Shown here: one piece after another, positions 11,677 to 29,347 of the stretch | Numbering within the stretch: position 1 is the first letter of the stretch | Layout of the letters: the number at the start of each line of letters is the position of its first letter | Virus record (IMG/VR): IMGVR_UViG_3300042504_002519 | Span: 1 to 64,000 of that record | DNA from: a virus | DNA: 64,000 nt | Strand: one strand, 5' to 3' | Translations under genes and position numbers: made by a program | The notes under the pieces: generated by a model | Databases searched by the model: none | The model's input: the letters and a program-made list of their open reading frames with translations, nothing else | Told to the model about the DNA's origin: nothing

Positions 11677-11721
11677 AAAACCCGCCAGGTGGCGGGGTGG
11701 ATCCGGGTAGTCCCGGGGTGA

Positions 11722-11928
11722 CTAGAAGTCGCTAGAAGTTAGGTAATCGTCCTTAATCAGTGGCGCGATTGCGGCCTCTGCCGCCGCCTCGGTGGGGTAA
11801 GTGATCCATAAGTTGGCGTCCCGCTCGCCGAAAAGTGTCTGACAGTCCTCCCATTCGCCGGTTGTTGGCGATACACCAAAAACTCGATAACCGTTGTCTC
11901 GGGGGAACACGCTATAGCGAACAATCAC
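11722..11928 (-). CDS. Hypothetical protein
   Basis: AAGGAG RBS upstream, terminator at about 11675-11697. Confidence 0.55.
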   Translation of the reverse strand: MIVRYSVFPRDNGYRVFGVSPTTGEWEDCQTLFGERDANLWITYPTEAAAEAAIAPLIKDDYLTSSDF

Positions 11929-12009
11929 GGTGGTTACTCCTTAAGTAGGGTGGGTAGGTGCCCTGGGTGGCAGTCCCCAGGGCGGGGTGGTGGGGTAAAT
12001 GGCCAGGGC

Positions 12010-12171
12010 CTAGAGGTCGGCCAGGGTAATGTCCTGGACGGGCTGGGCCTGGATGCTGTCCCAGGCCTCGGGGCCGAAGCCAAAGACTGCCAGGCTGGCC
12101 TGGAGCATGGCCTCGCTGGCCTCCAAGCTGGCCAGGGTAAGGGTGGTGGGGGTGGTGGTGAAGGTGGACAT
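12010..12171 (-). CDS. Small early protein (53 aa, MSTFTTTPTT...; not in ORF track)
   Basis: Translated by hand; lies directly downstream of promoter 12201-12230. Confidence 0.55.
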   Translation of the reverse strand: MSTFTTTPTTLTLASLEASEAMLQASLAVFGFGPEAWDSIQAQPVQDITLADL

Positions 12172-12365
12172 GGGATGTAGTGGTGGTTGACAACAATTTC
12201 AATATACAGGGGGTATATAGGGCTTGTCAATATACCTCAGGTAAATTAGTGGCACAACTACTGGCACAGGCAAAGAATTGATCGGAATGATCAATAACTC
12301 GATCAATAACTGGCAGTAAAAAAACCCCAGCTCATGCCGGGGTAGTTCGTCCTTAAACGTGCCCG

Positions 12366-12388
12366 AAGGCACCCCCACGGTGGTGGGG
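12366..12388 (-). CRISPR. Solitary repeat unit at the 3' end of the leftward replication operon
   Basis: CCCCACCACCGTGGGGGTGCCTT, 11 nt after a stop and upstream of the terminator at about 12317-12342. Confidence 0.6.
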
Positions 12389-12399
12389 TAGCTAGCTAG

Positions 12400-12591
12400 C
12401 TAGAACGGCGGCCCAATACAGTCCAGGTCGTCGGGATCGTCCATGTTCAGGCTGAACAGTCCGCCAGCTTCGTTTGGCTGCACCATAACTGTGCTGCCTA
12501 CTACAGTCTTGACGGTAGCTGCTACCCAGGGCTGGCTCTTGGCTGGGCGGAACATTACGGAGTAGCCGGGGCGTAGGGATAGTCTGCTCAT
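12400..12591 (-). CDS. Hypothetical protein
   Basis: Coupled to ssb stop. Confidence 0.6.
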   Translation of the reverse strand: MSRLSLRPGYSVMFRPAKSQPWVAATVKTVVGSTVMVQPNEAGGLFSLNMDDPDDLDCIGPPF

Positions 12592-13016
12592 TAGAATGGA
12601 ATGTCCTCGTAGGTGGGCTGGCTGGGCTGATCAGGCTGGTCCTGGGGGCGCTCGGTTGATACGGCTGCAGTCGGGGAGTTCCTGACGACTTTGGCCATCT
12701 TCCAGGCCTTGACGATCAGCTTGGAGCGTCGCTTGCCGGTTTCCCGGTCTTGCCAGCTTTCCTCGTCGATCTGGCCTTCGGTGATGGCTACCCGGTCACC
12801 CTTGAGCAGGTTGTCGCCTGCCCATTCAGCGGCACGGCCAAAGCACTTGACGGTGATCCAGGCGGAACGGGCCTCGCCATTCTGGTCTTTGCCGGCGTAG
12901 ACAGCGATCCGCATCTCGCAGATCTTGCCTCCGGTGCTGGTAAACCGTAGTTCGGGGTCGGCGCCAAGGTTGCCGACACATTGGACTGAGTTGTAGGCGT
13001 AGGGTTCTGCAGGCAT
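12591..13016 (-). CDS. ssb: Single-stranded DNA-binding protein
   Basis: GNLGADPELRFT, WQDRETG..RSK, acidic C-terminus EDIPF. Confidence 0.95.
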   Translation of the reverse strand: MPAEPYAYNSVQCVGNLGADPELRFTSTGGKICEMRIAVYAGKDQNGEARSAWITVKCFGRAAEWAGDNLLKGDRVAITEGQIDEESWQDRETGKRRSKLIVKAWKMAKVVRNSPTAAVSTERPQDQPDQPSQPTYEDIPF

Positions 13017-13044
13017 GGTCTTGTCTCCTCTGTAAGTGTGTGGT

Positions 13045-14178
13045 CTATGCTTGTTCCCTGATCTGTACTGGCATCACCAGGTACACTTGGCCGCTGCCGG
13101 GGGCGGTGATCGTGGCTGGGCTGGTGGGGGTATTGGTGTGCAGGATCACCTGTTCACTGCCAAAGGCCCGCAAGCCATCCAGCAGGTAGTCGCCGTTGAA
13201 CGCCATGGGATTCTTGGCTTTGCCTAGCACATCCTCGCCCTGGCCATCGCTAGCCTCGCAGCCAACCAGCTCCCGTCCGCTACTGCCCTCCACGTCAGCC
13301 TCCAGCACTAGCTGGCCCTGGTCATCCCAGCGGTGCCTGATGATGCTGTTTTTCTGGCTGGCCACCACCATGATCCGGCTTAAGGCCTCGATCCAGGCCT
13401 GCCGGTTGATCAGGGTCTCCACCGCAAAGGCCTGGGGGATAAGCCGGCGATACTCTGGATACTGGCCCTCCAGCAGCCGGGTGGTAAATACCAGATCGCC
13501 CAGGTCAAAAGTGGCAATGATATTGTCCAGCGTTATCGTTACCATGCCTTCAGCCTTGGCCAGGTGCTTCCCCAGGGCCTCCAGGCCTTTGCTAGGCAAT
13601 GTGACAGGGGTAAAGGCTTCAACGCCCTCCTGGGCCACGGGAAACACGCTGAGGCGATGGCCATCGGTGGAAGCAACTTCCAGGCCATCGGCAGCGGGCT
13701 GCAGGTGAATGCCACAAAGGATCTGCTTACTCTCGTCATCGCTAGCGGTGACTAGCGTGGACTCTAGGGCCCTGGCCAAGGTGCTAGCCTCCAGGGTAAG
13801 CTGCTGGCCTTCTGCCCGTTCAATGAGTGGGTAGTCCTCCCCGGGCTGGCCGGATAGGCTGTAGCTGCCGCCTAGGGTGTTGATGGTGGCCTGGCTGGTT
13901 TCTGGATCCCAGTTAAGCGCTAGGTTTCCCTGCATCCGGCCCACCATATCGGTGAGTAGCTTGGCAGGTAGCAGGATCTCGCCCTGCACGGCAATGCTGG
14001 CGCTGGCCTTGGCGGTAATGGTCACCGCCCCCAGATCACTGCCCGTCACCGCCAGGGTGTCTCCCTCAGCTTTGAGTAGCAGGTTTGTCAGTACAGGGTT
14101 GCTGGGTCTGCTGGGTACCGCCCGGTTGGGCAGACCCAGGACAGCGGCTAGGTCTTTGGCGTCAATTGTCAGTTGCAT
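13045..14178 (-). CDS. dnaN: DNA polymerase III beta sliding clamp
   Basis: AVPSRPSNPVL, STDGHRL, RLLEGQYPEY, FNGDYLLD, YLVMPV. Confidence 0.95.
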   Translation of the reverse strand: MQLTIDAKDLAAVLGLPNRAVPSRPSNPVLTNLLLKAEGDTLAVTGSDLGAVTITAKASASIAVQGEILLPAKLLTDMVGRMQGNLALNWDPETSQATINTLGGSYSLSGQPGEDYPLIERAEGQQLTLEASTLARALESTLVTASDDESKQILCGIHLQPAADGLEVASTDGHRLSVFPVAQEGVEAFTPVTLPSKGLEALGKHLAKAEGMVTITLDNIIATFDLGDLVFTTRLLEGQYPEYRRLIPQAFAVETLINRQAWIEALSRIMVVASQKNSIIRHRWDDQGQLVLEADVEGSSGRELVGCEASDGQGEDVLGKAKNPMAFNGDYLLDGLRAFGSEQVILHTNTPTSPATITAPGSGQVYLVMPVQIREQA

Positions 14179-14758
14179 CTGTATTTCTCCAGTTAGTACA
14201 AAATTCGATATCTGTTCCCAAGTTGCCGCCGAAGCGGTGCCAGATGAACCAGGCCGTTGTCACCGAGTCACTGCCGCTGGTGTCCGCCCGGAACCGTGGC
14301 CGGGGGTTAAAGACGATCAGCTTGGCCGGTGGGTGTTCTGCCAGCCAGCGGGCCCGGTTGTCGCAGGGCTCCAGGTAACTGAGCCTCAGTAACATGGCCA
14401 TGCCTACCCGGCAGTTGTCGTAGGCCAGGGGCAGGATCGCCGGGGCCTGGCTGTAGGGTGGGTTGCTGATCACCCAGTCGTAGCGGGCCATGCGGGCCCA
14501 GGCGCCAGGATCGGCGGCATCCATGGTGAGTGCAGCGGGCTTGGTTTCGTCAATGTCGGCGGTATCCACCAGACGAAACAGGCCAGACTCCTTCAGTACA
14601 TCGCTGATCGCCCCCTCGCCATTGCAGGGTTCCAGGACGGTGGCCTTGTTGCGCCAGGGGACAAAGCGATGGCTATTCAGCAGTGCCCAGGTGAGCAGGC
14701 TGGGGGTGGGGTAAAAGTCGAGGGGCTGGCGGGCAAGGTGCTCAGTTTGAGTGTTCAT
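14162..14758 (-). CDS. DNA N6-adenine methyltransferase
   Basis: DFYPTP, LEPCNGEGAI, NPPY. Confidence 0.85.
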   Translation of the reverse strand: MNTQTEHLARQPLDFYPTPSLLTWALLNSHRFVPWRNKATVLEPCNGEGAISDVLKESGLFRLVDTADIDETKPAALTMDAADPGAWARMARYDWVISNPPYSQAPAILPLAYDNCRVGMAMLLRLSYLEPCDNRARWLAEHPPAKLIVFNPRPRFRADTSGSDSVTTAWFIWHRFGGNLGTDIEFCTNWRNTDATDN

Positions 14759-14811
14759 GGCTCTCTTTGTAAGTGGGTGGTGTTTTGTCAGTGGCTTAGA
14801 GTTGGGTTCTA

Positions 14812-15738
14812 TTAAGCCACGTCGAAGAGGCTTTGCTGCGCCACGTCCTCGCACTGAGCAAGGTTCTTGGTGGATGCCCGGTAATAGCTTTCTTTCAGCT
14901 CGATGCCCACATAACGCCGTCCCATCTTTAGTGCCACATGGCCGCTGCTGCCAATGCCGTTGAAGGGATCTAGGACGGTATCGCATGGGTTGGTCCATAG
15001 CTGGATGGCCCGCTCGATAACCTGCAGCTGCAGCGGGCAGATGTGCCGCTCATCGTTATTGTCTCGAGCGCTTTGGTACTGGAGTGTGTCAGATGGGTTG
15101 ATGTCTGCCCACACAGGGCTAGCGTATTGCTGCCAGATGTTTACCGAGTCCCTATCTTTTTGGCCGGTACGGGCAGGAGGATTGTCGCCCACATAGTCTA
15201 CCAGCGGCCCATCAACGGGCTCAGGGTTGTCGCCTGGCTTGCGCATCACCACAAGGTAATCAGGGATGCCCTGGCGGCTAAGGGCGCTGTCTTTCTTAAG
15301 TTGCTTGTGCAGCAGCCCGAGCGCCTTAGTCCGTTGCATTGCCATTACAGGGTCCTTCCAGATGACAACCTCAGAGTGGTAGATAAACCCCTCTGACTGG
15401 AAGGACCGGATGAGATCACCACGGAAGTCCCTGATCCCGATGTAGCCATCCCTGGCTTTGCTGGTGGGTAGGTTCATGCAGTGGAACGCCACTAGTCGCC
15501 CTGGCATCAAGGTGCGGTATAGCTCTTTAATCAAGAACTGGAAATGCTCAGCGAAGTCTTGATCATCTTTGCAGTTGCCCATATCCCGATCTGAGTTGGA
15601 GTAGGTATACAAACTGGCGAATGGCGGGCTAAACACTGAGAAATGGATCGAGTTGTCGGGGATGCCTTTGGCGACTTCAACGCAGTCACCGTGGTAAAGC
15701 ATGTAGTTGGTGCCTTGTTGCTGGTTTAGAATTTTCAT
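14812..15738 (-). CDS. N4/N6 DNA methyltransferase (beta class)
   Basis: GDC, SPPF, HICP, LDPFNGIGS, GIELK. Confidence 0.88.
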   Translation of the reverse strand: MKILNQQQGTNYMLYHGDCVEVAKGIPDNSIHFSVFSPPFASLYTYSNSDRDMGNCKDDQDFAEHFQFLIKELYRTLMPGRLVAFHCMNLPTSKARDGYIGIRDFRGDLIRSFQSEGFIYHSEVVIWKDPVMAMQRTKALGLLHKQLKKDSALSRQGIPDYLVVMRKPGDNPEPVDGPLVDYVGDNPPARTGQKDRDSVNIWQQYASPVWADINPSDTLQYQSARDNNDERHICPLQLQVIERAIQLWTNPCDTVLDPFNGIGSSGHVALKMGRRYVGIELKESYYRASTKNLAQCEDVAQQSLFDVA

Positions 15739-15746
15739 GGGTTCTC

Positions 15747-17144
15747 CTAGGCGCATTGTGGGTACTTCAGCCAGTCTGGAATGAACATATCTACGGATGG
15801 CTGATAGCCCGTAGATGTTCGAGTAGTCCTGCCCAATAGCCGCATTGATTCATCCCTCATCAGTGCGGCCATGGCGTCTGCCATTTGTCGTGCTGCGTCA
15901 TCCTTACGCCGAATGTTAGCGATGACGGCCCCTTCCCTTTGCTCGTAAACAATGTGAACATTGACCGAGTTATTCTGGCCAAATCGCCAGCATCGCCTAA
16001 CGGCTTGGTAGTAGGCCTCATAGCTGTGGGACATGCCCACAAAAATAATATTGCTGCAATTCTGCCAGTTCATCCCAAAGCCAGCAATTGACGGCTTGGT
16101 GACCAGGGATTTGATGGTGCCAGACTGGAACCCGATCATCGAGATGGTCTTATGGTCGTCGCTGTCGGATCCCTTGATTTCTACAGCCCCAGGGATCATC
16201 TTGCTGAGCATTTCAGATTCATCGTTCAGGTCGCACCATATCAACCACTGATCGTCTGGTGCTTGCTGGACTATCTCTAGGGCCTTGGCGCATCTATCCT
16301 CTAGCGACTCGCGCCGGATGTGCCGCTGGTCGCTCAGCGTATCTGCTGAATGCCAAAACAACAGCCCTTCGGGGGGCTGAATGTTAGACTCGACAGGATG
16401 ATCGTGGATCACCAAGTCAGGCAGGTTAAAGCCATCATCGGCAAAGTCAAGATCCGATGGCTTGCGAATCATCACAGCCCAACTGCAGACCCACCGCCAA
16501 AAGTCATCAACGGCATGGCCCTTGATCCGCCAGTCCGATGTTCTACCGCCGTCATGGGTGAAGAACATGGCTAGCATTTCTTCTCGTGTCATGGCCCCTA
16601 CAAACTCAGCATGGTTGCCAAGCTCCATGTAGTCATTGGGGGCAGGAGTCGCCGAACAGGCCAGCTTAAACGGAGTGCTGGCAAATGACTCAATGATCTG
16701 AGTTCGGTATTTGCCGGTGTAGCTCTTGAGGATTGAGCTTTCATCCAGCACGATGCCAGAAAACGAGTCAGCATCGAACCGATCAAGCTTTTGATAGTTG
16801 GTGATGTTGATGCCATTGGTGACATCATCCTGGGACTGACACTGAGTCACTTCTATGTCAAATTTTGCACCTTCTCTAACTGTCTGCGTAGAGACAGCCA
16901 GCGGGGCCAGGACCAGGACAGGTGCCCCAGTGTGCTTGTGAACCTGATCGGCCCAGGCCAACTGCTGCAGGGTTTTGCCTAGGCCACAGTCAGCCCAGAT
17001 GCAAAACCGGCCCTGGATAAGGGCTCGATGGACAATTGCTCGCTGATACGGAAAGAGATGGCGGTTTAGCCCGCCAGGGTCACAGTCGATGCCGTTGGCA
17101 TCGATCCATTTCCGCTTGTTGTTGATAAAGTCGTGGTAGCTCAT
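15747..17144 (-). CDS. SNF2-like SF2 helicase
   Basis: DCGLGKT, DESS, SATP, GFGMNWQ, QAVRRCWRFGQ. Confidence 0.9.
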   Translation of the reverse strand: MSYHDFINNKRKWIDANGIDCDPGGLNRHLFPYQRAIVHRALIQGRFCIWADCGLGKTLQQLAWADQVHKHTGAPVLVLAPLAVSTQTVREGAKFDIEVTQCQSQDDVTNGINITNYQKLDRFDADSFSGIVLDESSILKSYTGKYRTQIIESFASTPFKLACSATPAPNDYMELGNHAEFVGAMTREEMLAMFFTHDGGRTSDWRIKGHAVDDFWRWVCSWAVMIRKPSDLDFADDGFNLPDLVIHDHPVESNIQPPEGLLFWHSADTLSDQRHIRRESLEDRCAKALEIVQQAPDDQWLIWCDLNDESEMLSKMIPGAVEIKGSDSDDHKTISMIGFQSGTIKSLVTKPSIAGFGMNWQNCSNIIFVGMSHSYEAYYQAVRRCWRFGQNNSVNVHIVYEQREGAVIANIRRKDDAARQMADAMAALMRDESMRLLGRTTRTSTGYQPSVDMFIPDWLKYPQCA

Positions 17145-17281
17145 GGCTCTTTGTAAGTGGTTGGCGGCTTATGGTTGGGTTCCAATAGACAGCTTATCCC
17201 CAGAGTGACACCCTGTCAATATACTGGGAGTAGATCGGGCAGGGATGCTACGCTATGATCAATTGGCTTAGAGTTGGGTTC

Positions 17282-17980
17282 CTATTCAAAAACCCGTTTT
17301 ACTTTCCTGGCTGCGTCGCCGCAGGCTTCTTGGCATTGGTCATTACCCCATCGATTTTCTTCGTTGATCGACTTCCTGGCTACCGCTTCAGCTAGGCTGA
17401 TGGCCGCTAGCTCCACATCATCGAGCCCGTCCCTGGTATGCACCACGCCCTGGGCTTGCCGGATCTGCTTGGCCGGGGCACCCAGGATCGGCACGTTGAT
17501 AGCGTCAGTACATTTGGCATAGCCAATGCCTTCAACACCGTGTTCCTTGAGGGTATCGGTGAAGTGTCGGCGGTTCAGCTTGCCGTCTAGCCTAGCCTTG
17601 ATCCAGTTGTCGGATCGGCCCTGGCGCTTGTACTTGCTGACGGCATGGGTCAGGGCCTTGTCGGGATCGGCAAGAATGCCAGCGGCCCAGGCCCGGAACT
17701 CCGCACCACGCTGGCCAGGGCATAGCATCAGGATCTGGTAGATGCCCTCTTCAGTGGCTACCGGGGTGTCTCGCTGCCCTCGGCCTGGGAATTTGAAGTT
17801 AACGCAGAAACCGTTAACCTCAGAGTGCTTGTCCTGTATGCGTTTTAGGGTTTCTCGTGTGTGGCTTTTATCAGCCACCCCGAACGCCACCAGTACATCG
17901 TAAACACTGAACCGTCGATCTTCAGTACTGCGGATGGTGGATCCGCTGCAATCGAACTCAAAGACTGTTAAGTTGTTCAT
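17282..17980 (-). CDS. Bro-N/antirepressor-like DNA-binding protein
   Basis: FSVYDVL..FKFPGRGQRDTPVATEEGIYQIL..AEFRAWAA. Confidence 0.7.
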   Translation of the reverse strand: MNNLTVFEFDCSGSTIRSTEDRRFSVYDVLVAFGVADKSHTRETLKRIQDKHSEVNGFCVNFKFPGRGQRDTPVATEEGIYQILMLCPGQRGAEFRAWAAGILADPDKALTHAVSKYKRQGRSDNWIKARLDGKLNRRHFTDTLKEHGVEGIGYAKCTDAINVPILGAPAKQIRQAQGVVHTRDGLDDVELAAISLAEAVARKSINEENRWGNDQCQEACGDAARKVKRVFE

Positions 17981-18047
17981 GGCTTTCCTTGTAAGCAAAT
18001 GGTTTCTCGCTTAGAGCTGGGTTCTTAGTCTTGCAGGACCAGTCCTA

Positions 18048-18644
18048 CTAGATCAGGTCGCGGATCTGCCGTATCACGGATCCAATGTTGAAGTCTGCTT
18101 GGTACGGATCGAACCGAACAAAGGAGCAAGCTAACGCCGACTTGATAGCCTTTTGCCTTTGATGCTCTTTGCGGCTGTCGTAAGCTGTATGCCCGTTTTC
18201 GTCGCATTCGACAGCGATCCTGGCTTCAGCAAGATAGAGATCGATACGGTAGCCAGCGCAGTAGAACTGGCGAATTGGGTTTTGGTCGGAGAAAGCTTCC
18301 GCAATGACTTTGATGGTTTGGACTTCAGCCCGGGGGTAAAATTTATCGCTTGTGATTTCTGCCTGCCAAGGAGCCGCTTTGCACATTTCAAGGATTCTGC
18401 GAATTGTGGCCTCATCTGCTACCGGAGTAGGCCGTTGCCCGCGCCCAGGAAATTGGTGACGTAAAACTGTGGCGGCGAGTTCGGGATGCTTGTCAATCAG
18501 GCGTTTATAGATGTTGCAGGCGTTAGCTGATTTATCGACCACCCCGAACGTTACCAGTACGTCGTAAACGCTGAACCGTCGATCCTTGGTGCTGCGAATG
18601 GTTGATTTGTTGTAGTCATCCCCAAAAATTGTTAGGTCGTCCAT
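18048..18644 (-). CDS. Bro-N-like domain fused to a DUF559/Vsr-like endonuclease
   Basis: Same N-domain as the neighbouring gene; QF..YRIDLY..IAVECDENGH. Confidence 0.75.
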   Translation of the reverse strand: MDDLTIFGDDYNKSTIRSTKDRRFSVYDVLVTFGVVDKSANACNIYKRLIDKHPELAATVLRHQFPGRGQRPTPVADEATIRRILEMCKAAPWQAEITSDKFYPRAEVQTIKVIAEAFSDQNPIRQFYCAGYRIDLYLAEARIAVECDENGHTAYDSRKEHQRQKAIKSALACSFVRFDPYQADFNIGSVIRQIRDLI

Positions 18645-18744
18645 GGCTCTCTTTGTAAGTGGTTGGCGTGTGGTTGATAGCCAGCGGCTTTTAGTTGGGT
18701 TTTAAGGCAAAAACACAAACTTTTAGCCCTGGCCAGTGGAAGGC

Positions 18745-18984
18745 TTAGCGGGAATTGCGCCAGGCCCGCTCGACTTTGGTCAGCGTGGCCAAGTCTGTTT
18801 TGAGCACTGTGACTAACTTTGCCATATCTGCTGGTGTCATTCTGGGAACAGACAGTCCTTGCTCCCATTTTTGGACAGTGGACACGCTAACACCTAATTG
18901 TTGTGCTAGCTCCTCCTGGGTTAGTCCGGAGGCGACTCGTAATGTTTTCATGTTTATCTCCGGTAGAGTCATCCCTATTATCAC
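18745..18984 (-). CDS. XRE-family HTH regulator (Cro/CI-like)
   Basis: LRVASGLTQEELAQQLGVSVSTVQKWEQG. Confidence 0.9.
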   Translation of the reverse strand: MIIGMTLPEINMKTLRVASGLTQEELAQQLGVSVSTVQKWEQGLSVPRMTPADMAKLVTVLKTDLATLTKVERAWRNSR

Positions 18985-19226
18985 CTAGATCCTAGGAATA
19001 GACTAACACGATCCCTTATAGGGAACGGCGAAACTCATAAGGGAAACCTATCAAGAGGATACTAGGAACTACTTGACAGATACCAAGCCCAGGCCCTACT
19101 ATTGAAATATCGACAGCAACCCACAGCCGCTAGCTAATAGCCGGGTTCTGTCAGTCCAGAGAAAAGGGGTCCGTCGCGCCAACGACTCGCCCCTTCGTTA
19201 AATCCACTTACAAAGGATCTTCCCTA

Positions 19227-19556
19227 ATGATACGCCAAATTTCCGTAACCGTCCTGGCCGCTTCCCTTTCCTTGCTTGCCCTGCCCACCATGCCCTCCGC
19301 GACTGCTGTGGCCCTGCGTGGCGACGGCTATTGCCCACCCGAGCAATACAGCTCGGACCCCGACTGTGTCCCTCGCGGATGGCGGGGCACTGGCCGGATC
19401 GGTGACGCTGACGAAGCCTCCAGCCGGGACCGGTTCCCCGAATGCATGAACGGCGTGTGCCGCAACCGTCAGGCCAGCCTGGTAGCCACGTCCGAGGCTG
19501 ACAAGCGCAACCAGTTCCCTGGCGGTCGTCCACGTCAGCCTGAGCACCTAGGCTAG
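19227..19556 (+). CDS. Putative secreted PatX/PatS-like protein (RGTGR motif)
   Basis: Signal-peptide-like N-terminus then VPRGWRGTGR. Confidence 0.55.
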   Translation: MIRQISVTVLAASLSLLALPTMPSATAVALRGDGYCPPEQYSSDPDCVPRGWRGTGRIGDADEASSRDRFPECMNGVCRNRQASLVATSEADKRNQFPGGRPRQPEHLG

Positions 19557-19625
19557 ATCCCTGGGGGCTGGCCCTTGCTGGCCCCAACCTGTTCCGCCAA
19601 CCATCCACACCACTTACAGAGAACC

Positions 19626-19919
19626 ATGGAATACACCAGCACTATCGAACGCTACGAGCCTACAGCACTGGATCTAGTCCAGGAGTCGCCGGTGAGCGAC
19701 GATCCCCAAGTCAAGCTGTACTCTGCCCAAGTTGTTTATCCCTCTGGGGAATGGCTAAACCTAGACAATATCCGGGTTATTGCTGGCCCTGGGGAGGCCT
19801 TCCTGGCTGCTGAGCTGGCTGGGATTTTTGCCGACCAGATCCAGGGTGCCAAGGTCAACACCGTCTGGTGCCCCGCCGACGTCCGGGACCAGGTGTTTGC
19901 TGACGACGACGAGTTTTAG
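19626..19919 (+). CDS. Hypothetical protein
   Basis: CCACTTACAGAGAACC-ATG. Confidence 0.6.
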   Translation: MEYTSTIERYEPTALDLVQESPVSDDPQVKLYSAQVVYPSGEWLNLDNIRVIAGPGEAFLAAELAGIFADQIQGAKVNTVWCPADVRDQVFADDDEF

Positions 19920-19967
19920 TCCACCACGATGGGGTCTTCGGGCCCCTTAGTCTTTAGGAGAACCACC

Positions 19968-20444
19968 ATGGCCGCAACCCTGTTAACCGCCACCGTCGAG
20001 ACCATTGGCAAGCCTAAGACCAGCAAGTACGAAGGCAAGCCCGACTACAGGCCCGTAGCCTTCAAGCTGCCGGATGGCAGTGAGGTATGGCGCAACTACA
20101 ACGTTGGATCGCCTGAACTAGCTTGGCTGCAACGTGGCCAGGCTTACCAAGTAGTCGTTGACGGCGATACTGTGACTCCGGTACAGCCGGAGCAAGCCAC
20201 TAGCCAGCCACAGGCCCAGCCTAGTCAGCCTGCTACTAGCTACCAGCCATCGCCCAGGCTAGACCAGATGGCCAAGGAAGAGAAGGCTGAAATTATCAGC
20301 TACATCACCTCCCTGGCTGGCCTCTACGCCTACGCCTACCAACAGGCCCAGGCTACGTTGACGCCCCATGGTGCACCCCTGGAGGCGATCCAGGCGGCTG
20401 CATCCACCACATTCATCCAGGCCGCAAAGCGCTTTCAACTGTGA
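19968..20444 (+). CDS. Hypothetical protein
   Basis: AGGAG RBS; start MAATLL. Confidence 0.65.
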   Translation: MAATLLTATVETIGKPKTSKYEGKPDYRPVAFKLPDGSEVWRNYNVGSPELAWLQRGQAYQVVVDGDTVTPVQPEQATSQPQAQPSQPATSYQPSPRLDQMAKEEKAEIISYITSLAGLYAYAYQQAQATLTPHGAPLEAIQAAASTTFIQAAKRFQL

Positions 20445-20626
20445 GCGCCACCATCGCCCGGCTGCGCCCCTGCCTGGCCGGGCGGCTATCCATTTTTCTG
20501 CATACACGGGCCCAGTACTTACGCCAGATCATTGCTAGGCACCCTGAGGATGGGGCTGCACAGCACGAACTGGAGCTAGTGCTAGCCCAGATCCGATACC
20601 TACCCTTTATTGAGGAACGACCATGA
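20441..20626 (+). CDS. Hypothetical protein
   Basis: Overlapping start/stop with both neighbours. Confidence 0.5.
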   Translation: MSATIARLRPCLAGRLSIFLHTRAQYLRQIIARHPEDGAAQHELELVLAQIRYLPFIEERP

Positions 20627-20959
20627 ACTTACCCGCTGACCCTACCCGCACCGAGATCTTGGCCTACCTGCTGGCCTACTCAGCCTACTGGCGGGGTGAA
20701 CTAGAGAGCGCTATGGATGCGGCCAATGTGCCGTCGAGCAGCATTAACGCCATCCAGGGCGACTTATCTGCCGCCCTGTTTGCTGAAACGACCATGAACT
20801 TACCCGCTGACCCTACCCGCTCCGAGGTGCTGGCCTACCTGCTGGCCTACTCAGCCTACTGGCGGGGTGAACTAGAGAGCGCTATGGATGCGGCCAATGT
20901 GCCGTCGAGCAGCATTAACGCCATCCAGGGCGACTTATCTGCCGCCCTGTTTGCTGAAA
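20616..20959 (+). repeat. 171-bp near-perfect tandem duplication
   Basis: Units start at 20616 and 20787. Confidence 0.95.
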
Positions 20960-21003
20960 TGGCCAGAGTAAACCAAGCCCGTATGGAGGATGACGGCCTA
21001 TGA
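20623..21003 (+). CDS. Hypothetical protein built from a 57-aa tandem duplication
   Basis: MNLPADPTR... occurs twice. Confidence 0.65.
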   Translation: MNLPADPTRTEILAYLLAYSAYWRGELESAMDAANVPSSSINAIQGDLSAALFAETTMNLPADPTRSEVLAYLLAYSAYWRGELESAMDAANVPSSSINAIQGDLSAALFAEMARVNQARMEDDGL

Positions 21004-21161
21004 AACGACGTAAACCCCTGGCCGACAACGTAGCTGCTGAGCTACGCCGAGAACTACGGCAGCAGCAGGCACAGCAAGGCCAGCAAGGCCAGGAACCCCA
21101 GCAAAGCCAGCAACAGGGCTGGCAGGAACAGATACAGCAACAACTAGACGAGGTGTACTAA
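21000..21161 (+). CDS. Small Gln-rich protein (53 aa; not in ORF track)
   Basis: ATGA and TAATG coupling to both neighbours. Confidence 0.55.
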   Translation: MKRRKPLADNVAAELRRELRQQQAQQGQQGQEPQQSQQQGWQEQIQQQLDEVY

Positions 21162-21349
21162 TGGCAACTTATGTTTTTACCTGGGAGAAGGCCTATGCTA
21201 GCGGAGTGCTAGAGGGCAGCTCGACTGTCCAGATCACCAGTGGGGATATTCGCATGGGCATCACCGCTGCTCAATTGCAGATAGCCCAGCTTCACTCAGT
21301 CTCACCTAATGAAGTCCACATCCGCGATATCCAACGGGTTAGGCTCTAG
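21161..21349 (+). CDS. Hypothetical protein
   Basis: Coupled start; terminator at 21377-21402. Confidence 0.55.
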   Translation: MATYVFTWEKAYASGVLEGSSTVQITSGDIRMGITAAQLQIAQLHSVSPNEVHIRDIQRVRL

Positions 21350-21441
21350 CTAGCGAAGCTTTTTTGCTGCCATCTAAACCCCGGCTATAAGCTGGGGTTT
21401 TTGCTTTGGGCACTATTTAAGTAAGTGCTGGTTGTAACAAA

Positions 21442-22302
21442 ATGTTGACCACGCGACGGCTATCAGATGAAGTCCTCGAAATCCGGATCCGCTACACCGG
21501 GGAGGAAACCTATCACTTTTTGTTGGCCAGCGACATTCACCTGGATAACCCAAAGTGTGATCGCAAGTTATTCTTTTCTCACCTCGACAAAATGAAGGCT
21601 CTCGGTGGTAGGGCCTTATTTTTTGGTGATGTGCTATGCCTGATGCAGGGCAAGCGCGACAAGCGGGGCAGCAAGGCCAGCATTCGCCCCGAGCACCAGG
21701 GCGCCAACTACTTTGACTTGGTATTCAAGGAGTCCGCTGACATTCTGGCACCCTACGGCCAGGAGATCCTAATGATGGGCAACGGCAACCATGAGACAGC
21801 CATCATCAACCACCAGGAGATAGATCCCCTGGCTAATGTGGTACAGCAGCTGCGGGGCCGCCACGGGGCCATCACCGAGCACATGGGCTATCAGGGCTGG
21901 ATCCGGTTTGTGTTTTACAAAGAACGGGGCCGAGGCGTCGAGGCTGTTCGGCGGTGCAACCTGTTCTTTCACCACGGGGCCTGGGGTGGTATTGTCACCA
22001 AGGGCACCATGGGCGGTGGCCGGTATGCCAGCATTGCACCGGACGCGGATATTATCGTCAATGGCCACAATCACGAGCGCAGCATCGTTTCTCACCCTTG
22101 CTACCGGTTGATCGAAACCGGCAAGGTGCGGGTGACGCCCCGATACCACGTGCAGTCTGGCACCTACAAGGAGGAGTTCGCTGGTAGCAACGGCTGGGCG
22201 GTGGAGCGGATCGTCATGCCGAAATCTCTAGGCGGCGTCTGGCTGAGGCTGACTCCCACTAAGTCCGCTGGCGTTGTGGTTTCACTGGAACCGGCTAGCT
22301 GA
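21442..22302 (+). CDS. Calcineurin-like metallophosphoesterase
   Basis: SDIH, GD, GNHE, HHG, GHNH motifs. Confidence 0.88.
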   Translation: MLTTRRLSDEVLEIRIRYTGEETYHFLLASDIHLDNPKCDRKLFFSHLDKMKALGGRALFFGDVLCLMQGKRDKRGSKASIRPEHQGANYFDLVFKESADILAPYGQEILMMGNGNHETAIINHQEIDPLANVVQQLRGRHGAITEHMGYQGWIRFVFYKERGRGVEAVRRCNLFFHHGAWGGIVTKGTMGGGRYASIAPDADIIVNGHNHERSIVSHPCYRLIETGKVRVTPRYHVQSGTYKEEFAGSNGWAVERIVMPKSLGGVWLRLTPTKSAGVVVSLEPAS

Positions 22303-22314
22303 AATCGGTTAACT

Positions 22315-22356
22315 GTGCTATAGTAAAGGACAGGAACCTTGAAAATTTGGTGGTAA
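22315..22356 (+). promoter_or_regulatory. Array C leader
   Basis: GTGCTATAGT..CAGGAACCTTGAAAATTTGGTGGTAAG. Confidence 0.8.
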
Positions 22357-22863
22357 GTCGACCCACTTTGGTGGGAGTTTTTCAAGGTCTATCGTCAGTC
22401 ACCCCTGCTACCGGCTATACTGGCCTGGATCCCACTTCGGTGGGGGTTTTTCGCACTCAGTCGGTAGCCACTCGCGGCCAGCGCCAAAGCCTACCCCACC
22501 CCAGTGGGGGTTTATCTGGGAGTTTTTCGCCACCCCTGCTACCGGATGATCGAAACCACGCTGGCCTGGATCCCACCCTGGTGGGCGTTTTTCGCTCGAT
22601 AAGGGATCCCCATTTTGGTGGGGGTGTATCCGAAGACTGGCAACGATATGGCCCCACTTCGGTGGGAGTGGTTCTTTCCCCGTGGTTAGCCCCGCGCTGG
22701 TGGGGGTGGCTCTCGCTTTGTGCCCGCCCCACCCTGGTGGGAGTTCGTCCCAACTCTGGTTGTACCCCATCCTGGTGGGGGTTTATCTTGACTATGGCGA
22801 CTCCCCACTGCTGTGGGAGTGTGTCAATCTGCAGTTCGCCCCCCACTCTGGTGGGAGTAAAAC
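22357..22863 (+). CRISPR. CRISPR array C (11 repeats plus one partial)
   Basis: Three long units then periods 37,44,38,37,38,38,38; terminator at 22915-22939. Confidence 0.9.
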
Positions 22864-22961
22864 CCAATTGTAAGCAAATTGCGGTAGACTGGATTTGTTA
22901 GATGCACCACTCCGACCCCGGCCACGGCTGGGGTTTTTTGTTGCCTGGGCATTCTGGATCC

Positions 22962-23585
22962 ATGGCAACCAAGAAACCCACACCAAAGCTACGATCCAAG
23001 CATGCGCCCAAGCCAGCACCTGGTGCTAGGCGGGGCAACCGGCAGGTGGTAAAAACGTCCGGCCAGCCTGCTACGCCAGCCTGCAAGGAGCGGGCTTTTG
23101 AGCTGTACTGCGAGCTGGGGCCTCAATGGGCTGAAATATCCAGGCGACTGAAGGGCGAAGGCTTTAACCGCTGTGGCAATACCACGATCAGCGGCTGGGC
23201 CAAAGCAGGCGACTGGCACGCCAGAAAGCTGGCTTTGTCGGAGTCACCAGGCGAAGCGGCAAAGGTGCCCCACAAGGCCAAAGTAGCACCGCCCCCACCG
23301 CCTGCTACGGACATAGGCAGCTACCGCACCAAAAAGACCAACCTGGAGCACGTCAGGACGGCGATTGAGCAGGTGGTGCAGTCGATCTGCGACGCACGGG
23401 CCACCAGCGACCTGCGGGCCATTGGCAGCTTGGCTACGGCGTTGGTAAAGCTGATTGAGTTGGAAGGCAAATTGAGCCCCGCCACGGCATCCGAGCTAGC
23501 AGCCAGGGCCGTAGATCTGGGCCTGGATCCAGAGCAATTTATGGCCGCATTGGCGGAGCAATGGCGGATCGCCAAGGCTGGCTAG
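22962..23585 (+). CDS. Probable terminase small subunit (HTH, DUF1804-like)
   Basis: KERAFELY..EISRRL..TISGWAKAGDW..K; helical C-terminus; late promoter motif upstream. Confidence 0.55.
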   Translation: MATKKPTPKLRSKHAPKPAPGARRGNRQVVKTSGQPATPACKERAFELYCELGPQWAEISRRLKGEGFNRCGNTTISGWAKAGDWHARKLALSESPGEAAKVPHKAKVAPPPPPATDIGSYRTKKTNLEHVRTAIEQVVQSICDARATSDLRAIGSLATALVKLIELEGKLSPATASELAARAVDLGLDPEQFMAALAEQWRIAKAG

Positions 23586-24217
23586 AACCCCCACCGTGGT
23601 GGGGATAGCCTAGCAAGTGAACAACGCCCACAGGGGTGGGGATGGTTTGACGAGGGAGAGACGCCCACGGAGGTGGGGCTGCGTCTTGCAGGCAGGATCA
23701 ACGCCCACCAAAGTGGGGCTGGCTGCAAGGACGAGAGACCCCCACGGTGGTGGGATGTGATGCAGTTCTAGGAAGTACTCCCACCGAAGTGGGGAGGTGT
23801 TTGCGAGGGAGCTATCCACCGCCGCTAGGGTTTCCTTAGCGAGAAACCCCCACCGAAGTGGGGAGGTGTTTGCGAGTTGCCTAGCAGCTCCCCCAGGTTG
23901 GCCTGCTCGAGGAACCCCCACCGAAGTGGGGTGTGCTTGCGAGATGGCTAGGGTGATGGCACCCGACCTAGTAAGGCCAGAGAAACCCCCACCGGAGTGG
24001 GGTGTGCTTTGCGAGGGCCCAGCTGGATACCGTGGCATCGGAGCTATCCACCGAGAAACCCCCACCGGAGTGGGGTGTGCTTTGCGAGGACCGCCAAGCA
24101 ACTTTAAGCAGGTGAAACAAAATGAGGAGAAACCCCCACCGAAGTGGGGAGGTGGTTGCGAGACACGGCGCTGGCCGATAGCCAAAACCACGAAAAACCC
24201 CCACCGGAGTAGGATCC
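23582..24217 (-). CRISPR. CRISPR array D (12 repeats; 6 long spacers, then short units)
   Basis: Two identical 36-nt repeats at 23980 and 24053; periods 65,74,73,71,68,69 then 39,37,40,37,37. Confidence 0.95.
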
Positions 24218-24267
24218 ACCGTCACTTACCACCAAGTTGTCAAGGTTCCTACCTACCACTATAGCAC
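24218..24267 (-). promoter_or_regulatory. Array D leader
   Basis: GTGCTATAGT..AGGAACCTTGACAACTTGGTGGTAAGTGACGGTGG. Confidence 0.8.
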
Positions 24268-24316
24268 GGATCCACCAGCCTGGGCACCCTATAAAAAATT
24301 CTCTGAGGGATCCACC

Positions 24317-24469
24317 ATGAGCGAGGACATCAAAGCCCAGGTCCGGGCCATTGCCCATGAAATTGCCCGCCGCGAGGTCTTTGAACACGAGCTCCGCTTC
24401 ACTTTGTCCGGTGCCCTGCTGGGCGCTGTCGCGATGCTAGCCTGGCTGGTAGCCACGGGGCGGTTCTGA
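24317..24469 (+). CDS. Small membrane protein (50 aa; not in ORF track)
   Basis: MSEDIKAQ... with C-terminal hydrophobic helix; GAGGG RBS; late promoter at 24282. Confidence 0.55.
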   Translation: MSEDIKAQVRAIAHEIARREVFEHELRFTLSGALLGAVAMLAWLVATGRF

Positions 24470-24735
24470 TGGACCTCCAGGCCATGCTGGATGAGCTAGA
24501 CCGGCTAGGGGCCATCCTGGACGAGCTGGCCGGGGACAAGCCACAGCCACCCGGCTGGCCGCTGGGGGCGGATGAGGTTGACTATGGCCATGACATTCTG
24601 ATCCGCCTGGACCGGGAAGAACCCTGCCGGATATGCCAGCAGTTGGCCAACTGGGGATCGCTGTTATTGGGTGAGTATGTCTGCGGCCAGGGCTGCTACG
24701 ATACCTTGATCTCCCCGTCCTGGGATCCTGCATAG
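24469..24735 (+). CDS. Hypothetical protein with two CxxC motifs
   Basis: CRIC and CGQGC; TGATG coupling. Confidence 0.5.
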   Translation: MDLQAMLDELDRLGAILDELAGDKPQPPGWPLGADEVDYGHDILIRLDREEPCRICQQLANWGSLLLGEYVCGQGCYDTLISPSWDPA

Positions 24736-25172
24736 CCTTCCTTGGCCAGCAGGAACCGCCCATCATAGCCATCCCCCACAAAAGCCCGCACAGCTTCGTA
24801 ACCGACTGGCTGGATATACCAGACATAGGCAAAGTTCTTGGCCTCAGCGGTGCCTAGCAGGGTAGCTAGCTGGGCCGCTGTCACCTGAAGCAGGCCAGCT
24901 TGGCTGCTAGCGGTATTGGTGCTGCGGGTGATGCCAGATCCTATCGACAGGCTAAGGGCTGGCGTGGTGCTGATCGGCTTGAATTTCTTATCCAACTCAA
25001 AGAATCGCACCGATATGCTGGCGTTGACATAGTTGGTGACGGTATCGGCACTGGGGCGGGTAAACTGCCAGCTAAGCCCGGCTAGGCCAGCTCCTGCCAG
25101 CACCGTCTTTCCATTGAGTGCATCAGTCACAATCGCAGTCCTCCAAGGTAAGTGTGGGCGCAATGGATCCAA
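24696..25172 (-). CDS. Hypothetical virion-associated protein
   Basis: Last gene of the leftward fibre cluster. Confidence 0.55.
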   Translation of the reverse strand: MDPLRPHLPWRTAIVTDALNGKTVLAGAGLAGLSWQFTRPSADTVTNYVNASISVRFFELDKKFKPISTTPALSLSIGSGITRSTNTASSQAGLLQVTAAQLATLLGTAEAKNFAYVWYIQPVGYEAVRAFVGDGYDGRFLLAKEGYAGSQDGEIKVS

Positions 25173-25404
25173 TATTCAGCCCTGCCATGATCGCCGCTAC
25201 CGCTAGGGCTGGGGCCAGGGTGGCTAGGTCCAGGCTAGGGGCTAGGCTGGCCAGCGATAGGCTAGGGTGCTGGGCCAGTAGATGCAGGGCAGGGGCGAGG
25301 CTATCCAGGTGGATGCAGGGGATGCACTGCACGATCAGCAGGGCGATTCCAGGGTGCAGCCCGAGGGGATAGAGGGTGCCGGTTAAGCCGAGTGGGTAGA
25401 GCAT
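25123..25404 (-). CDS. Hypothetical protein with LxSLxP repeats
   Basis: GGGAG RBS; operon position. Confidence 0.4.
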   Translation of the reverse strand: MLYPLGLTGTLYPLGLHPGIALLIVQCIPCIHLDSLAPALHLLAQHPSLSLASLAPSLDLATLAPALAVAAIMAGLNIGSIAPTLTLEDCDCD

Positions 25405-25467
25405 GGGGCTAGCTCCCTACCTTTTTGCTGGCGTCGGGAATATGGTTCATGGCTGAGGACAAGGGAT

Positions 25468-26268
25468 TTAGACATTAGGGGCAAAGTTTTTGTAAGGGTG
25501 ATCGTTTGGAAGAGAGCCTGTTAAACCGTATTTATGGGCGAAATAGCCTTCAACAAGCTGACGATTCGTCGTATCCCAAGCTTGACTGGATATAAGAACT
25601 TCGCCAATTTTTCCGTTGTAATTCAAGCTTGAATCTGAATAGTTACCAAGAATCCAGTTAATCCCGCCAGTGGGTGTGGCAGCTAGGCTACCTGTAAAAG
25701 AGGTTATTAAGCTCCCCGATAAGTAAGCATCTCCAGTACTCTCAGAGGTTTTTATTAAAATAAAAAAAGTGGTTGTTCCAGCAACGGCGAAATTAGTATT
25801 CTCTGCATAGGTCCTAAAATTACCAGAGTTGTCACCCCAATATAATCCTGCATTGGACGAAGATGAGTTAAGTTCAACCAGATGGCTCCAAGGCCCTGCT
25901 GGTTGATGAATTATTACGGGTGAATTGCTGACAACATCTGGTTTGATCACAAATGCTTTGCTGTAGGTGTTATCAAACTGTAAAAGCGTAGTCGAGTTAG
26001 AAATAGTCAGACTATCGTTAGTTCCATCAAAATCAATAGCTGGGTTGCCATTGATTTCTGAGGCTAGATAACCCGGCCTGAGGCTTTCTGTAGATTGCGT
26101 AGCATGGCGATCATTGCCACTTTTGTCCCGCCACTCAGATACAGAATCGCTCACCAAGGTCAGAGTGCTAGCATCATCTGCCTCTAGCCACAGCTCGTTA
26201 TTGCTTAGCTGCGCTGGCGTCCATAGGTTAGTCGCCACATAGCTAGTTCGGCGTCGATGAATACTCAT
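25468..26268 (-). CDS. LamG/concanavalin-like virion or tail protein
   Basis: WLEADD, VSEWRDKSGN, FDGTND, GKIGEVLI, VEGYFAHKYG. Confidence 0.7.
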   Translation of the reverse strand: MSIHRRRTSYVATNLWTPAQLSNNELWLEADDASTLTLVSDSVSEWRDKSGNDRHATQSTESLRPGYLASEINGNPAIDFDGTNDSLTISNSTTLLQFDNTYSKAFVIKPDVVSNSPVIIHQPAGPWSHLVELNSSSSNAGLYWGDNSGNFRTYAENTNFAVAGTTTFFILIKTSESTGDAYLSGSLITSFTGSLAATPTGGINWILGNYSDSSLNYNGKIGEVLISSQAWDTTNRQLVEGYFAHKYGLTGSLPNDHPYKNFAPNV

Positions 26269-26702
26269 AGGCCAGTCGCCACCCATTCGTCGGTGTCTCG
26301 CTTACGGAGTGATGCTTCTTTGTGCTGAGCCAGGGTTGTAGATGCATTGCGCAAGGTGACGCCGCTGCCAGCAATAGTTACCGCCCCGGCACCTAGGTTG
26401 TAGACGTAGATTACAGATCCTACAGGAAAGGCGATACTGGCATTGGTGGGAACGGTCAACGTTCTGGCTGAAGCGCTATTGAATGCCACAACCCGACCCA
26501 GATCAGCTAAGGCCAGGGTATAGTCAGCGGTCTGGGCGGTGCCCTCTCGCAACAAGATCGGAGCAAACTCCACCATTTCGGTGGTGCCCTTGACATAGAG
26601 CCGTCCGGCTGTCGGATCAAAGGCGGGTTCAGCCGCATCCCAATTAGCAGCAGTCGGCACCCCGCTGCCTTGGCGTAACAAGATTTTGTACTTGCGCGGC
26701 AT
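26265..26702 (-). CDS. Tail fibre-associated protein
   Basis: QTADYTLALADLG..TVPTNASIAFPVG..GAGAVTI. Confidence 0.6.
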   Translation of the reverse strand: MPRKYKILLRQGSGVPTAANWDAAEPAFDPTAGRLYVKGTTEMVEFAPILLREGTAQTADYTLALADLGRVVAFNSASARTLTVPTNASIAFPVGSVIYVYNLGAGAVTIAGSGVTLRNASTTLAQHKEASLRKRDTDEWVATGL

Positions 26703-27880
26703 TAGAATGTCCCTCCATCAATGATTGTGGCCCAGGAGATTGTATCGGTAGCGGCATCATAGGCTAGGATGCCATCAACACTGCCACCGCCATCTAGAGC
26801 GCTGATCGTGTCTACCGTATTGGCAACCAGGACAGCACCCTTGGGGATAGTAGTCAAGCCAGTGCCGCCATAAATAGCAGGAATGACTGAGCCATTCCAT
26901 ATACCAGTGGTGATGGTGCCAACGCTGGTCAGGCTGGAAGCCGTGACGCCAGAGCCCAGGGCGCTAGAGCTAAGGACGGATGTACCATTGATGTAAAACG
27001 CTTTGCCAGTCAGTAGGTTTAGATGTTCACTACTGGTCCAGGCGTCGGTTGCATCCACCCAGTTGAAGGTTTTGTCAGTGGTGCCCTTAAGGGTGATCCC
27101 GCCGCCATCTGCACCGGCATCCGTGGGAGAGGCCACATCACCCAGGACAAAGTTTTTATCGTCAATGGTGACGGTCGTGCTGTTGATCGTGGTGGTGGTG
27201 CCATTGACGGTTAGATCGCCTGTGACGGTGACATTGCTGCCAAAGGTGACGGGCTGGGTCGCCTGGGCCATCTGGTCTAATCGACTGGTCCGCACCTGGG
27301 TGTCGAAGTCGCTGATCTTAGCCGCTGTCAATGCAGGAATATCCTCCGCTACCAATGCCCTAAATGTGGGTGCTGCATTGGCCCCGGTCGTAGGTCCAGC
27401 AAACACTTGGTTGGCGGCTTGAGTAGCTAGGGCCGCCGTTAGGGTGCCGCTGGCCGTAACAGGCGATCCGGTGACGGTGAACAAGTTGGGAAGTGATAGT
27501 CCTACACTGGTGACGCTACCACCCCCGGCAGCAGACACCACCGATTTGACGTAGGCTGTAGTGGCCAGTCGGGTAGAGTCATCGCTCGACGCCTGGGTGA
27601 CGCCTGTAGCACTGTTAGTGCCGGTGCCAGAGAAAACACAGGGTCCAGAAAAGGTTTTCGTGCCAGTGACGGTCTGAGTTGTTCCCAGGGTGGTGTAGGC
27701 ACCAGGGCCAGCAATGGCGTCAATCTGGCTAGCGGTCCCGTTTTCGCCGCCAGTACCTTTACCATAGTACAGAGTATTGTCAGCCTCGTTATAGGCTAGC
27801 TCAGCGTTGGCTAAGACAAGACCCTGAACCCCAAGAGCACCCGTAGAGGCGCGTCGTTTAATTCGGATGATATTAGACAT
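26702..27880 (-). CDS. Tail fibre-like protein
   Basis: IRIKR..ELAYNEADNTLYYG N-terminus, GDLTVNGTTTTINSTTVTIDD, C-terminal IDGGTF. Confidence 0.7.
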   Translation of the reverse strand: MSNIIRIKRRASTGALGVQGLVLANAELAYNEADNTLYYGKGTGGENGTASQIDAIAGPGAYTTLGTTQTVTGTKTFSGPCVFSGTGTNSATGVTQASSDDSTRLATTAYVKSVVSAAGGGSVTSVGLSLPNLFTVTGSPVTASGTLTAALATQAANQVFAGPTTGANAAPTFRALVAEDIPALTAAKISDFDTQVRTSRLDQMAQATQPVTFGSNVTVTGDLTVNGTTTTINSTTVTIDDKNFVLGDVASPTDAGADGGGITLKGTTDKTFNWVDATDAWTSSEHLNLLTGKAFYINGTSVLSSSALGSGVTASSLTSVGTITTGIWNGSVIPAIYGGTGLTTIPKGAVLVANTVDTISALDGGGSVDGILAYDAATDTISWATIIDGGTF

Positions 27881-28131: not shown

Positions 28132-28133
28132 GG

Positions 28134-29343: not shown

Positions 29344-29347
29344 GGCG

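Follow-up and report, generated by a model that had tools for sequence, protein, structure and literature searches.

A temperate cyanophage gene for a probably exported early protein with an optional RG[S/T]GR cassette that may work like PatX

Comparative sequence analysis firmly establishes the gene at 19227-19556 of the 64,000-nt stretch of DNA analysed here (hereafter, the window) as a real, early gene of a temperate cyanophage, encoding a probably exported protein built as a mosaic of cassettes. It establishes as firmly that the hexapeptide [W/Y]RG[S/T]GR carried by this protein is an optional plug-in, albeit a conserved one, rather than the family core. By analogy with the cyanobacterial inhibitors of HetR, PatX-like inhibition of HetR by the cassette is the best specific mechanism that we can put forward, and we do so tentatively, giving it somewhat less than an even chance.

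The window comprises the first 64,000 positions of a 77.5-kb IMG/VR virus record (G000; 57% GC), with genes for a Mu-type portal, terminase, capsid, tyrosine integrase, DnaN, sigma factor, methylase, helicase and an Ant/Bro-like protein. The best matches of its proteins among 50,697 phage records were the following:

61741-63273: tail sheath; the top 15 matches are all to cyanophages, with Leptolyngbya phage Lbo402-yong5 first (42%), then Nostoc, Anabaena and Dolichospermum phages and S-TIM5.
58552-60795: 747-aa protein, the sole match of which is the tape measure of Leptolyngbya phage Lbo402-yong5.
26702-27880: fibre with a module of 58-83 aa at 62-73% identity in the best matches; Synechococcus phages account for 20 of 24 records.
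25468-26286: tail protein; cyanophages of Synechococcus and Pseudanabaena in seven of the top eight records.
Capsid: best match to S-CBS4.
DnaN: best match to S-H1, then Nodularia phages.

Taken together, the sheath, tape measure, fibre, tail, capsid and DnaN matches bear out the view of an earlier note on this DNA that the gene is phage-encoded, and provide strong evidence that the element is a cyanophage. S-CBS4 has only the capsid and one tail protein in common with this phage, Atlas taxa for DnaN were uninformative, and a search near the integrase found no tRNA-like attP. Two further genomes (G002, G003) match G000 over the early/replication region (window 10001-30000) at 73-92% nucleotide identity and have no detectable match to its portal (35826-37532) or tail sheath (61741-63273) proteins, which suggests that different virion modules stand behind a common early module.

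The gene was described in the earlier note as the first of the rightward early operon, and its surroundings agree with this placement: it is the first gene after a candidate promoter and is divergent from a gene for a cI-like HTH protein. The locus is laid out as follows:

18745-18984, minus strand: divergent cI/Xre-like HTH repressor gene, 79 aa (Pfam HTH_31, 1.4e-12; HTH_3, 4.6e-12; PHROG transcriptional repressor families).
19073-19102, plus strand: candidate sigma-70-like promoter of the rightward early operon, TTGACA-18-TACTAT, by consensus match only (consensus scan, 10 of 12 matches).
19105-19226, plus strand: structured 5' leader with hairpins at 19112-19152 and 19164-19195 (fold; inverted repeat I3).
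19227-19556, plus strand, stop codon included: gene for the 109-aa predicted exported protein (ATG start in the ORF list; 22 + 11 homologues; dN/dS; lake cDNA contigs as a hint only).
19564-19585, plus strand: 9-bp G+C-rich hairpin without a U tract, right behind the stop codon (fold).

Operator-like repeats of the CTAGGAA type occur repeatedly on the flanks of the candidate promoter. The leader has a predicted folding energy of -34.1 kcal/mol (z = -2.5 against shuffled sequences) and gave no match in an Rfam search. Homologous loci were drawn from IMG/VR (L002-L008), from JGI metagenomes (L033-L041) and from a short contig in a MAG (L001), and the leader is kept in L001, L003 and L008. Its second hairpin (19164-19195), which is G+C-rich and followed by UUCGUU, could be an attenuator. 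A Shine-Dalgarno sequence, AAGGA (19213-19217), lies 9 nt 5' of the ATG. The role of the hairpin behind the stop codon (19564-19585) is uncertain because the whole 83-nt stretch is no stabler than shuffled sequences (z = 0.01). Further downstream lie small genes and a phosphoesterase gene (PHROG 'DNA repair exonuclease'), and in a syntenic relative a 211-aa ORF that we take to be RecT-like.

Pairwise comparisons of the plus frame gave dN/dS values of 0.16-0.5 at dS of 0.2-3, insertions and deletions span whole codons, and the cysteines are conserved, so that this frame is coding. Of the four contigs that a freshwater metatranscriptome places on 17000-22400, two span the leader together with the gene's first 200 nt (19162-19428) and represent two allelic variants; these are contigs, with neither strand nor level, and DNA carry-over is possible, so they are taken as a hint only.

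A word-indexed search retrieved 22 homologues of the 109-aa protein, and an exhaustive profile search of 1.84 billion representative proteins returned only 13 clusters at 50% identity, with family members found in freshwater phages only. The family matched no Pfam (E<=0.01), PHROG or NCBIfam family; a PDB profile search with the protein returned noise (E about 1), and an ESM Atlas search returned scores at noise level (0.77). Alignment of the homologues defines the following parts, all on the plus strand:

19227-19307, plus strand: predicted Sec/SPase-I signal peptide, residues 1-27, ending in A25-T26-A27 before V28, with an alternative cut after A29 (heuristic).
19320-19367, plus strand: invariant family core GDG-x-CP ... 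DPDC, with the first Cys pair, C36/C47 (the only invariant columns of a 30-sequence alignment).
19380-19397, plus strand: WRGTGR cassette, residues 52-57, with RGTGR at 19383-19397 (22 of 39 distinct variants carry the motif).
19398-19424, plus strand: variable acidic linker IGDADEASS behind the cassette, differing in length and sequence among motif-bearing variants.
19443-19460, plus strand: second Cys pair, C73 and C78, in one of three alternative middle cassettes (alignment A2).
19500-19553, plus strand: conserved C-terminal block DKRNQFP..RPRQP-x-HLG, the commoner of two alternative C-termini (alignments A1 and A2).

The N-terminus combines a single positive charge (R3), a hydrophobic stretch of ~16 residues, including a 12-mer with a Kyte-Doolittle score of 2.2, and an A-x-A site. 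This n/h/c layout and the A-x-A site are kept in all full-length homologues although their sequences diverge, in keeping with the signal-peptide-like N-terminus that had been recognised in the single sequence, and the protein is probably exported via Sec. Past the core the family is a mosaic, in which the loop comes with or without the motif, the middle in three forms and the C-terminus in two. AlphaFold2 run on 30 sequences yielded no fold (pLDDT 55, pTM 0.14), with pLDDT below 50 across residues 54-62, a stretch that takes in part of the cassette, and the mature protein looks largely disordered in a model built from this shallow alignment.

The stretch PRGWRGTGR, singled out in the earlier note as being followed by about 50 more residues, occupies residues 49-57 of the protein, with RGTGR at residues 53-57 and 52 residues behind it. 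A six-frame translation of the window contains a single RG[ST]GR, against an expectation of 0.16-0.2 per frame, so the bare match is not significant and its weight comes from conservation in homologues. The motif is present in 22 of 39 distinct core-plus-loop variants, spelled WRGTGR (14 variants), WRGSGR (4) or YRGSGR (4) and in no other way, and relatives that are only ~40% identical overall (P0025, P0028-P0030) keep it while the adjacent residues are completely different. In the remaining 17 a clean indel takes out little more than the hexapeptide, as seen when the motif-less ...AREGAQ-QL[NS]KS... is set beside the shortest motif-bearing form, ...AREGAQ-WRGTGRE-QA.., and because the indel between alleles is almost exactly the hexapeptide, we regard the motif as a discrete unit. 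Motif-less alleles are found in L002, L003 and L008, the nearest relatives by synteny, and in the majority of metagenome contigs from this phage group (among L033-L041), and the rest of their protein is under purifying selection. The earlier note had staked its reading on conservation of the motif in homologues, and here the outcome is divided: the motif recurs in more than half of the variants, and it is gone from the remainder, in which the rest of the protein is conserved.

An exact scan of IMG/VR for the motif DNA returned family members only, plus out-of-frame chance matches in high-GC contigs. Because the six motif codons are nearly identical in DNA among loci, though gene-wide dS exceeds 1, the conservation may in part reflect recent exchange of the cassette, which accounts for the near-identity no less well than prolonged purifying selection.

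HetR and its RG(S/T)GR inhibitors are the textbook bacterial case of Turing-type patterning, and to our knowledge HetR inhibition is the only known function of an RG[S/T]GR peptide in cyanobacteria. PatX, reportedly described by Elhai and Khudyakov in 2018, is Asl2332 of Nostoc/Anabaena PCC 7120 and corresponds to NCBIfam NF047413. It has a functional Sec signal peptide and requires export for its action, is processed by the periplasmic S13 peptidase PatP, and yields the hexapeptide HRGTGR; binding of this peptide to HetR, at 88 nM, prevents DNA binding (Xu et al. 2025, PMC12756182). The patP gene is present in 86% of cyanobacterial genomes, and patX together with hetR is found only in filamentous clades (PMC12756182). 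It has also been reported that hetR is invariably accompanied by patX, that PatX orthologues of non-heterocystous Arthrospira block heterocysts in Anabaena, and that the internal RGSGR of HetN still mediates HetR inhibition (Khudyakov et al. 2020, PMC7761841).

Like PatX, the phage protein is small, has a Sec-type signal peptide (here predicted) and bears RG[S/T]GR behind a ring-bearing residue (H in PatX, W or Y here). Unlike PatX, in which the motif is at or near the C-terminus, it holds the motif internally with 52 conserved residues after it, contains four Cys, is phage-encoded with no apparent hetR beside it, and belongs to a family in which the motif is optional. Seven family members gave no NCBIfam match, to NF047413 (PatX) or otherwise, at E<=10, and a six-frame search of five genomes (G000, G002, G004, G005, G006) with NF047413 likewise gave none at E<=10. 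What survives of the earlier description as a PatX-like peptide is thus the combination of predicted export and RGTGR, whereas homology to PatX is absent; with no profile similarity, an internal motif, extra Cys-containing parts and no apparent hetR linkage, our claim is that the protein may work like PatX, not that it is a PatX. An internal motif within a larger protein is a likeness to HetN, although HetN is a 287-aa short-chain dehydrogenase-like membrane protein with ERGSGR, whereas the phage protein has no such domain (no Pfam at E<=0.01) and is predicted to be exported and disordered. With PatS it shares the pentapeptide that in PatS binds HetR, but PatS is a cytoplasmic peptide of 13-17 aa with a C-terminal RGSGR and no signal peptide, and the phage protein has 109 aa, a predicted signal peptide and an internal motif.

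Hyperabundance of HIP1 is a hallmark of cyanobacteria, and the more distant, motif-bearing relatives L004-L007 and L036 hold 28-42 HIP1 sites (GCGATCGC) per 16-20 kb, against an expectation of less than one; in G004-G006, HIP1 occurs about every 500 bp and TGGATCCA is absent. G000, G002, L003 and L008 have zero HIP1 and zero CGATCG, with 26 CGATCG expected in the 77.5 kb of G000 (z = -7). Two palindromes are hyperabundant in this group: G000 has 28 TGGATCCA, roughly 25-fold the number expected from base composition, and 26 CTGGCCAG, roughly 14-fold the number expected; GATC is over-represented about 1.9 times in the group. The HIP1 sites of G006 read TGCGATCGCA where the homologous positions of the window read TGTGATCGCA, and the HIP1-rich and CGATCG-free phage groups still share segments at 82-89% nucleotide identity. 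The cassette is present in four of five distinct cases among HIP1-rich contigs and in a minority of CGATCG-free contigs. The CGATCG-free signature may stem from an 'alternate HIP' regime or from pressure to escape a PvuI-type restriction enzyme, and its palindromes could be used as a host fingerprint. Leptolyngbya phage Lbo402-yong5 (L016; 31.5 kb read, 47% GC) has a separate peculiarity, complete avoidance of GATC, with zero sites in 31 kb.

The sequencing runs holding the stretch are lake-water metagenomes only, with no culture among them. A scan of all GTDB representative genomes returned one match, a 2.8-kb contig (L001) in a 'Limisphaerales' MAG (G001). This MAG holds several short contigs of the phage family, at least three of them with phage-type DnaN genes, plus the target-gene contig (C103, C109, C112, C116), and C103 and C109 are 82-92% identical to the phage. 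We rejected a Limisphaerales host: the 900-kb bin has only 8 TGGATCCA, against 28 in the 77.5-kb phage. Because the palindrome signature of the phage is missing from the bin, the binning looks spurious, and the phage contigs are probably contamination by fragments of a microdiverse phage population.

A search of the phage record for hetR (PF03574) gave no match, and the control genomes were likewise without signal. We know of no HetR in unicellular picocyanobacteria, and a host of this kind fits G000 (57% GC, no HIP1, a fibre module as in Synechococcus phages). A HIP1-dense host of ~55% GC could equally be Synechococcus elongatus-like, with hetR absent, or Geitlerinema-like, with hetR present: hetR is listed for Geitlerinema PCC 7407, Prochlorothrix and Halomicronema, and none is listed for Pseudanabaena or S. 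elongatus (Table S3, PMC12756182). Overall, we put the chance that the host carries HetR at about one half. The diffusion along the filament envisaged in the earlier note presupposes a filamentous host.

Given that PatX itself leaves the cytoplasm through Sec and is trimmed to HRGTGR in the periplasm, delivery of an internal hexapeptide by an exported protein is reasonable in mechanism. After removal of the signal peptide, ~82 residues with two Cys pairs would reach the periplasm, where the hexapeptide [W/Y]RG[S/T]GR would be displayed in a flexible acidic loop. A periplasmic peptidase, for example one of the PatP type that most cyanobacteria possess, would release an RG[S/T]GR-containing peptide, which would be taken up by cells, bind the HetR hood and block HetR DNA binding in the infected filament. 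In this scheme we infer export, processing, HetR as the target and a HetR-bearing host. It is favoured by the spelling of the motif, which stays within the HetR-inhibitor consensus even at ~40% identity with flanks free to vary, and by the behaviour of the cassette as a unit gained or lost almost exactly as a hexapeptide. The kept signal-peptide layout, the absence of a fold in AlphaFold2, the precedents of PatX export and cleavage and of the internal motif of HetN, the cyanophage matches and the HIP1 density of motif-bearing relatives point the same way. Against it stand the 17 of 39 variants without the motif (including L002, L003, L008 and L033-L041, the nearest syntenic phages within one lake population), the rest of which is under purifying selection, the lack of PatX homology, the two cuts that an internal motif would need, and the oligomer signature and fibre of G000, which fit HetR-free picocyanobacteria. 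The near-identity of the motif DNA also allows recent exchange, and the chance expectation of 0.16-0.2 has to be read alongside the very many windows scanned. As the cassette-less alleles are otherwise conserved, the rest of the protein would have a second periplasmic role.

A more elaborate version of PatX-like inhibition combines these elements: an exported pro-peptide with a plug-in cassette would be cut by the host's own ancient peptidase of the PatP type and spread via the shared periplasm of the filament, switching HetR off in infected and neighbouring cells, and the cassette-less alleles would belong to phages on HetR-free hosts. We consider this version speculative and, as a whole, rather unlikely.

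If this version were true, the protein would be a virus-encoded mimic of a bacterial morphogen, by which a phage steers the multicellular development of its host. With PatX-like inhibition by the cassette, phages could stop the formation of heterocysts or other HetR-dependent cells, affecting nitrogen fixation and lake bloom dynamics, and the cassette would constitute a natural, portable, exported HetR-inhibitor module that comes with natural cassette-less control alleles. Among the papers covered by a full-text search, none describes a phage-encoded RG(S/T)GR peptide or a viral copy of the inhibitor. Should the PatX-like reading fail, the family would remain a clear case, in cyanophages, of exported early proteins that shuffle cassettes.

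Nearly as likely as PatX-like inhibition is a periplasmic early effector unrelated to HetR, acting in superinfection exclusion, in blocking a receptor or transporter, or in inhibiting a periplasmic or cell-wall enzyme. The loop would then be an interchangeable contact or cleavage cassette in an arms race, and the identity of the motif a coincidence. Such a role accords with the distribution of conservation, as invariance is confined to GDG-x-CP...DPDC and the C-terminal block and does not extend to the motif, and with the occurrence of each segment (signal peptide, N-core, loop, middle, C-terminus) in two or three alternative cassettes, which is typical of diversifying, recombining surface or immunity genes. 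Motif-less alleles are moreover common and conserved, and the host may lack HetR. The proposal names no specific target, however, finds no similarity to a known exclusion protein or inhibitor in Pfam, PHROG, NCBIfam or PDB, and leaves unexplained why the motif is spelled only as RG[ST]GR amid varying flanks.

It is improbable, in our estimate, that the motif is functionless, a pentapeptide that arose by chance in a disordered loop, rich in G and R and evolving fast, and that recombination has spread through a young family. In favour of such an origin stand the expectation of 0.16-0.2 per frame per 64 kb, the absence of the motif from 17 of 39 variants, and the near-identity of its DNA from locus to locus, in line with a recent exchange and not with prolonged purifying selection. 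A chance motif would nevertheless hardly be kept with only W/Y and S/T changes at ~40% identity, next to completely different residues, nor would indel boundaries be expected to coincide with the hexapeptide.

Less probable again is a secreted pro-peptide of phage communication resembling the arbitrium peptide AimP, in which the C-terminal ...QP-x-HLG or the cassette would be sensed and would bias the adjoining lysis-lysogeny switch. As with AimP of Bacillus phages, the gene is phage-encoded, its product has a signal peptide (here predicted) and it sits beside such a switch, here the cI-like one; the body of the protein appears disordered, and variation in the C-terminal block is mostly at a single position (E/G/R/I/S). 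Unlike AimP, the protein is ~2.5 times longer, contains Cys pairs, has no AimR-type receptor gene and belongs to a phage of a diderm cyanobacterial host. An AimR-like family is absent among the neighbour genes, where the only TPR-like signals (ANAPC3, E=0.0011), in 20623-21003, fall below Pfam cut-offs, and we know of no precedent for a communication pro-peptide in cyanophages or diderm hosts. Finally, that 19227-19556 is no gene at all, and that the region is non-coding or is read from one of the long antisense ORFs opposite it (19198-19608 and 19224-19547), which are by-products expected at 57% GC, is hardly credible beside a plus frame with dN/dS of 0.16-0.5, whole-codon indels, conserved Cys, a conserved signal-peptide layout and a Shine-Dalgarno sequence.

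Several neighbouring features are of separate interest. Two adjacent genes on the minus strand, 17282-17998 and 18048-18644, have a common Bro-N-like N-terminal domain (..STIRST.DRRFSVYDVLV..FPGRGQR.TPVA..), followed in one by an Ant-like C-terminus and in the other by a DUF559/endonuclease-like one. DNA contigs from the same lake join across this pair, skipping from 17237 to 18746 and from 17946 to 18625, and in MAG contig C103 the DnaN region (to window position 14810) lies ~430 bases from the HTH/target-gene region (from 18863), a distance of ~4 kb in the window. Because these contigs and C103 skip them, the Bro-N-like genes appear to be insertion/deletion polymorphisms in the population.

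The ORF at 20623-21003 (plus strand) contains an almost exact tandem duplication of ~57 residues (MNLPADPTR..ALFAE twice), of which the syntenic relative L002 has just one copy, 68 aa long. The gene that follows the target, 19627-19919 (plus strand, probable ATG at 19627), encodes an acidic ..ADDDEF tail similar to the C-terminal tip of SSB proteins, and its product could, judging by this tail, be an SSB-tail mimic; the phage SSB itself is presumably encoded by 12591-13016 (minus strand), the product of which ends in ..YEDIPF. The gene at 11086-11676 (plus strand) encodes a sigma factor (Sigma70_r2, 4.7e-17), the region 2 of which we take to resemble cyanobacterial group-3 (SigF-like) sigma factors.
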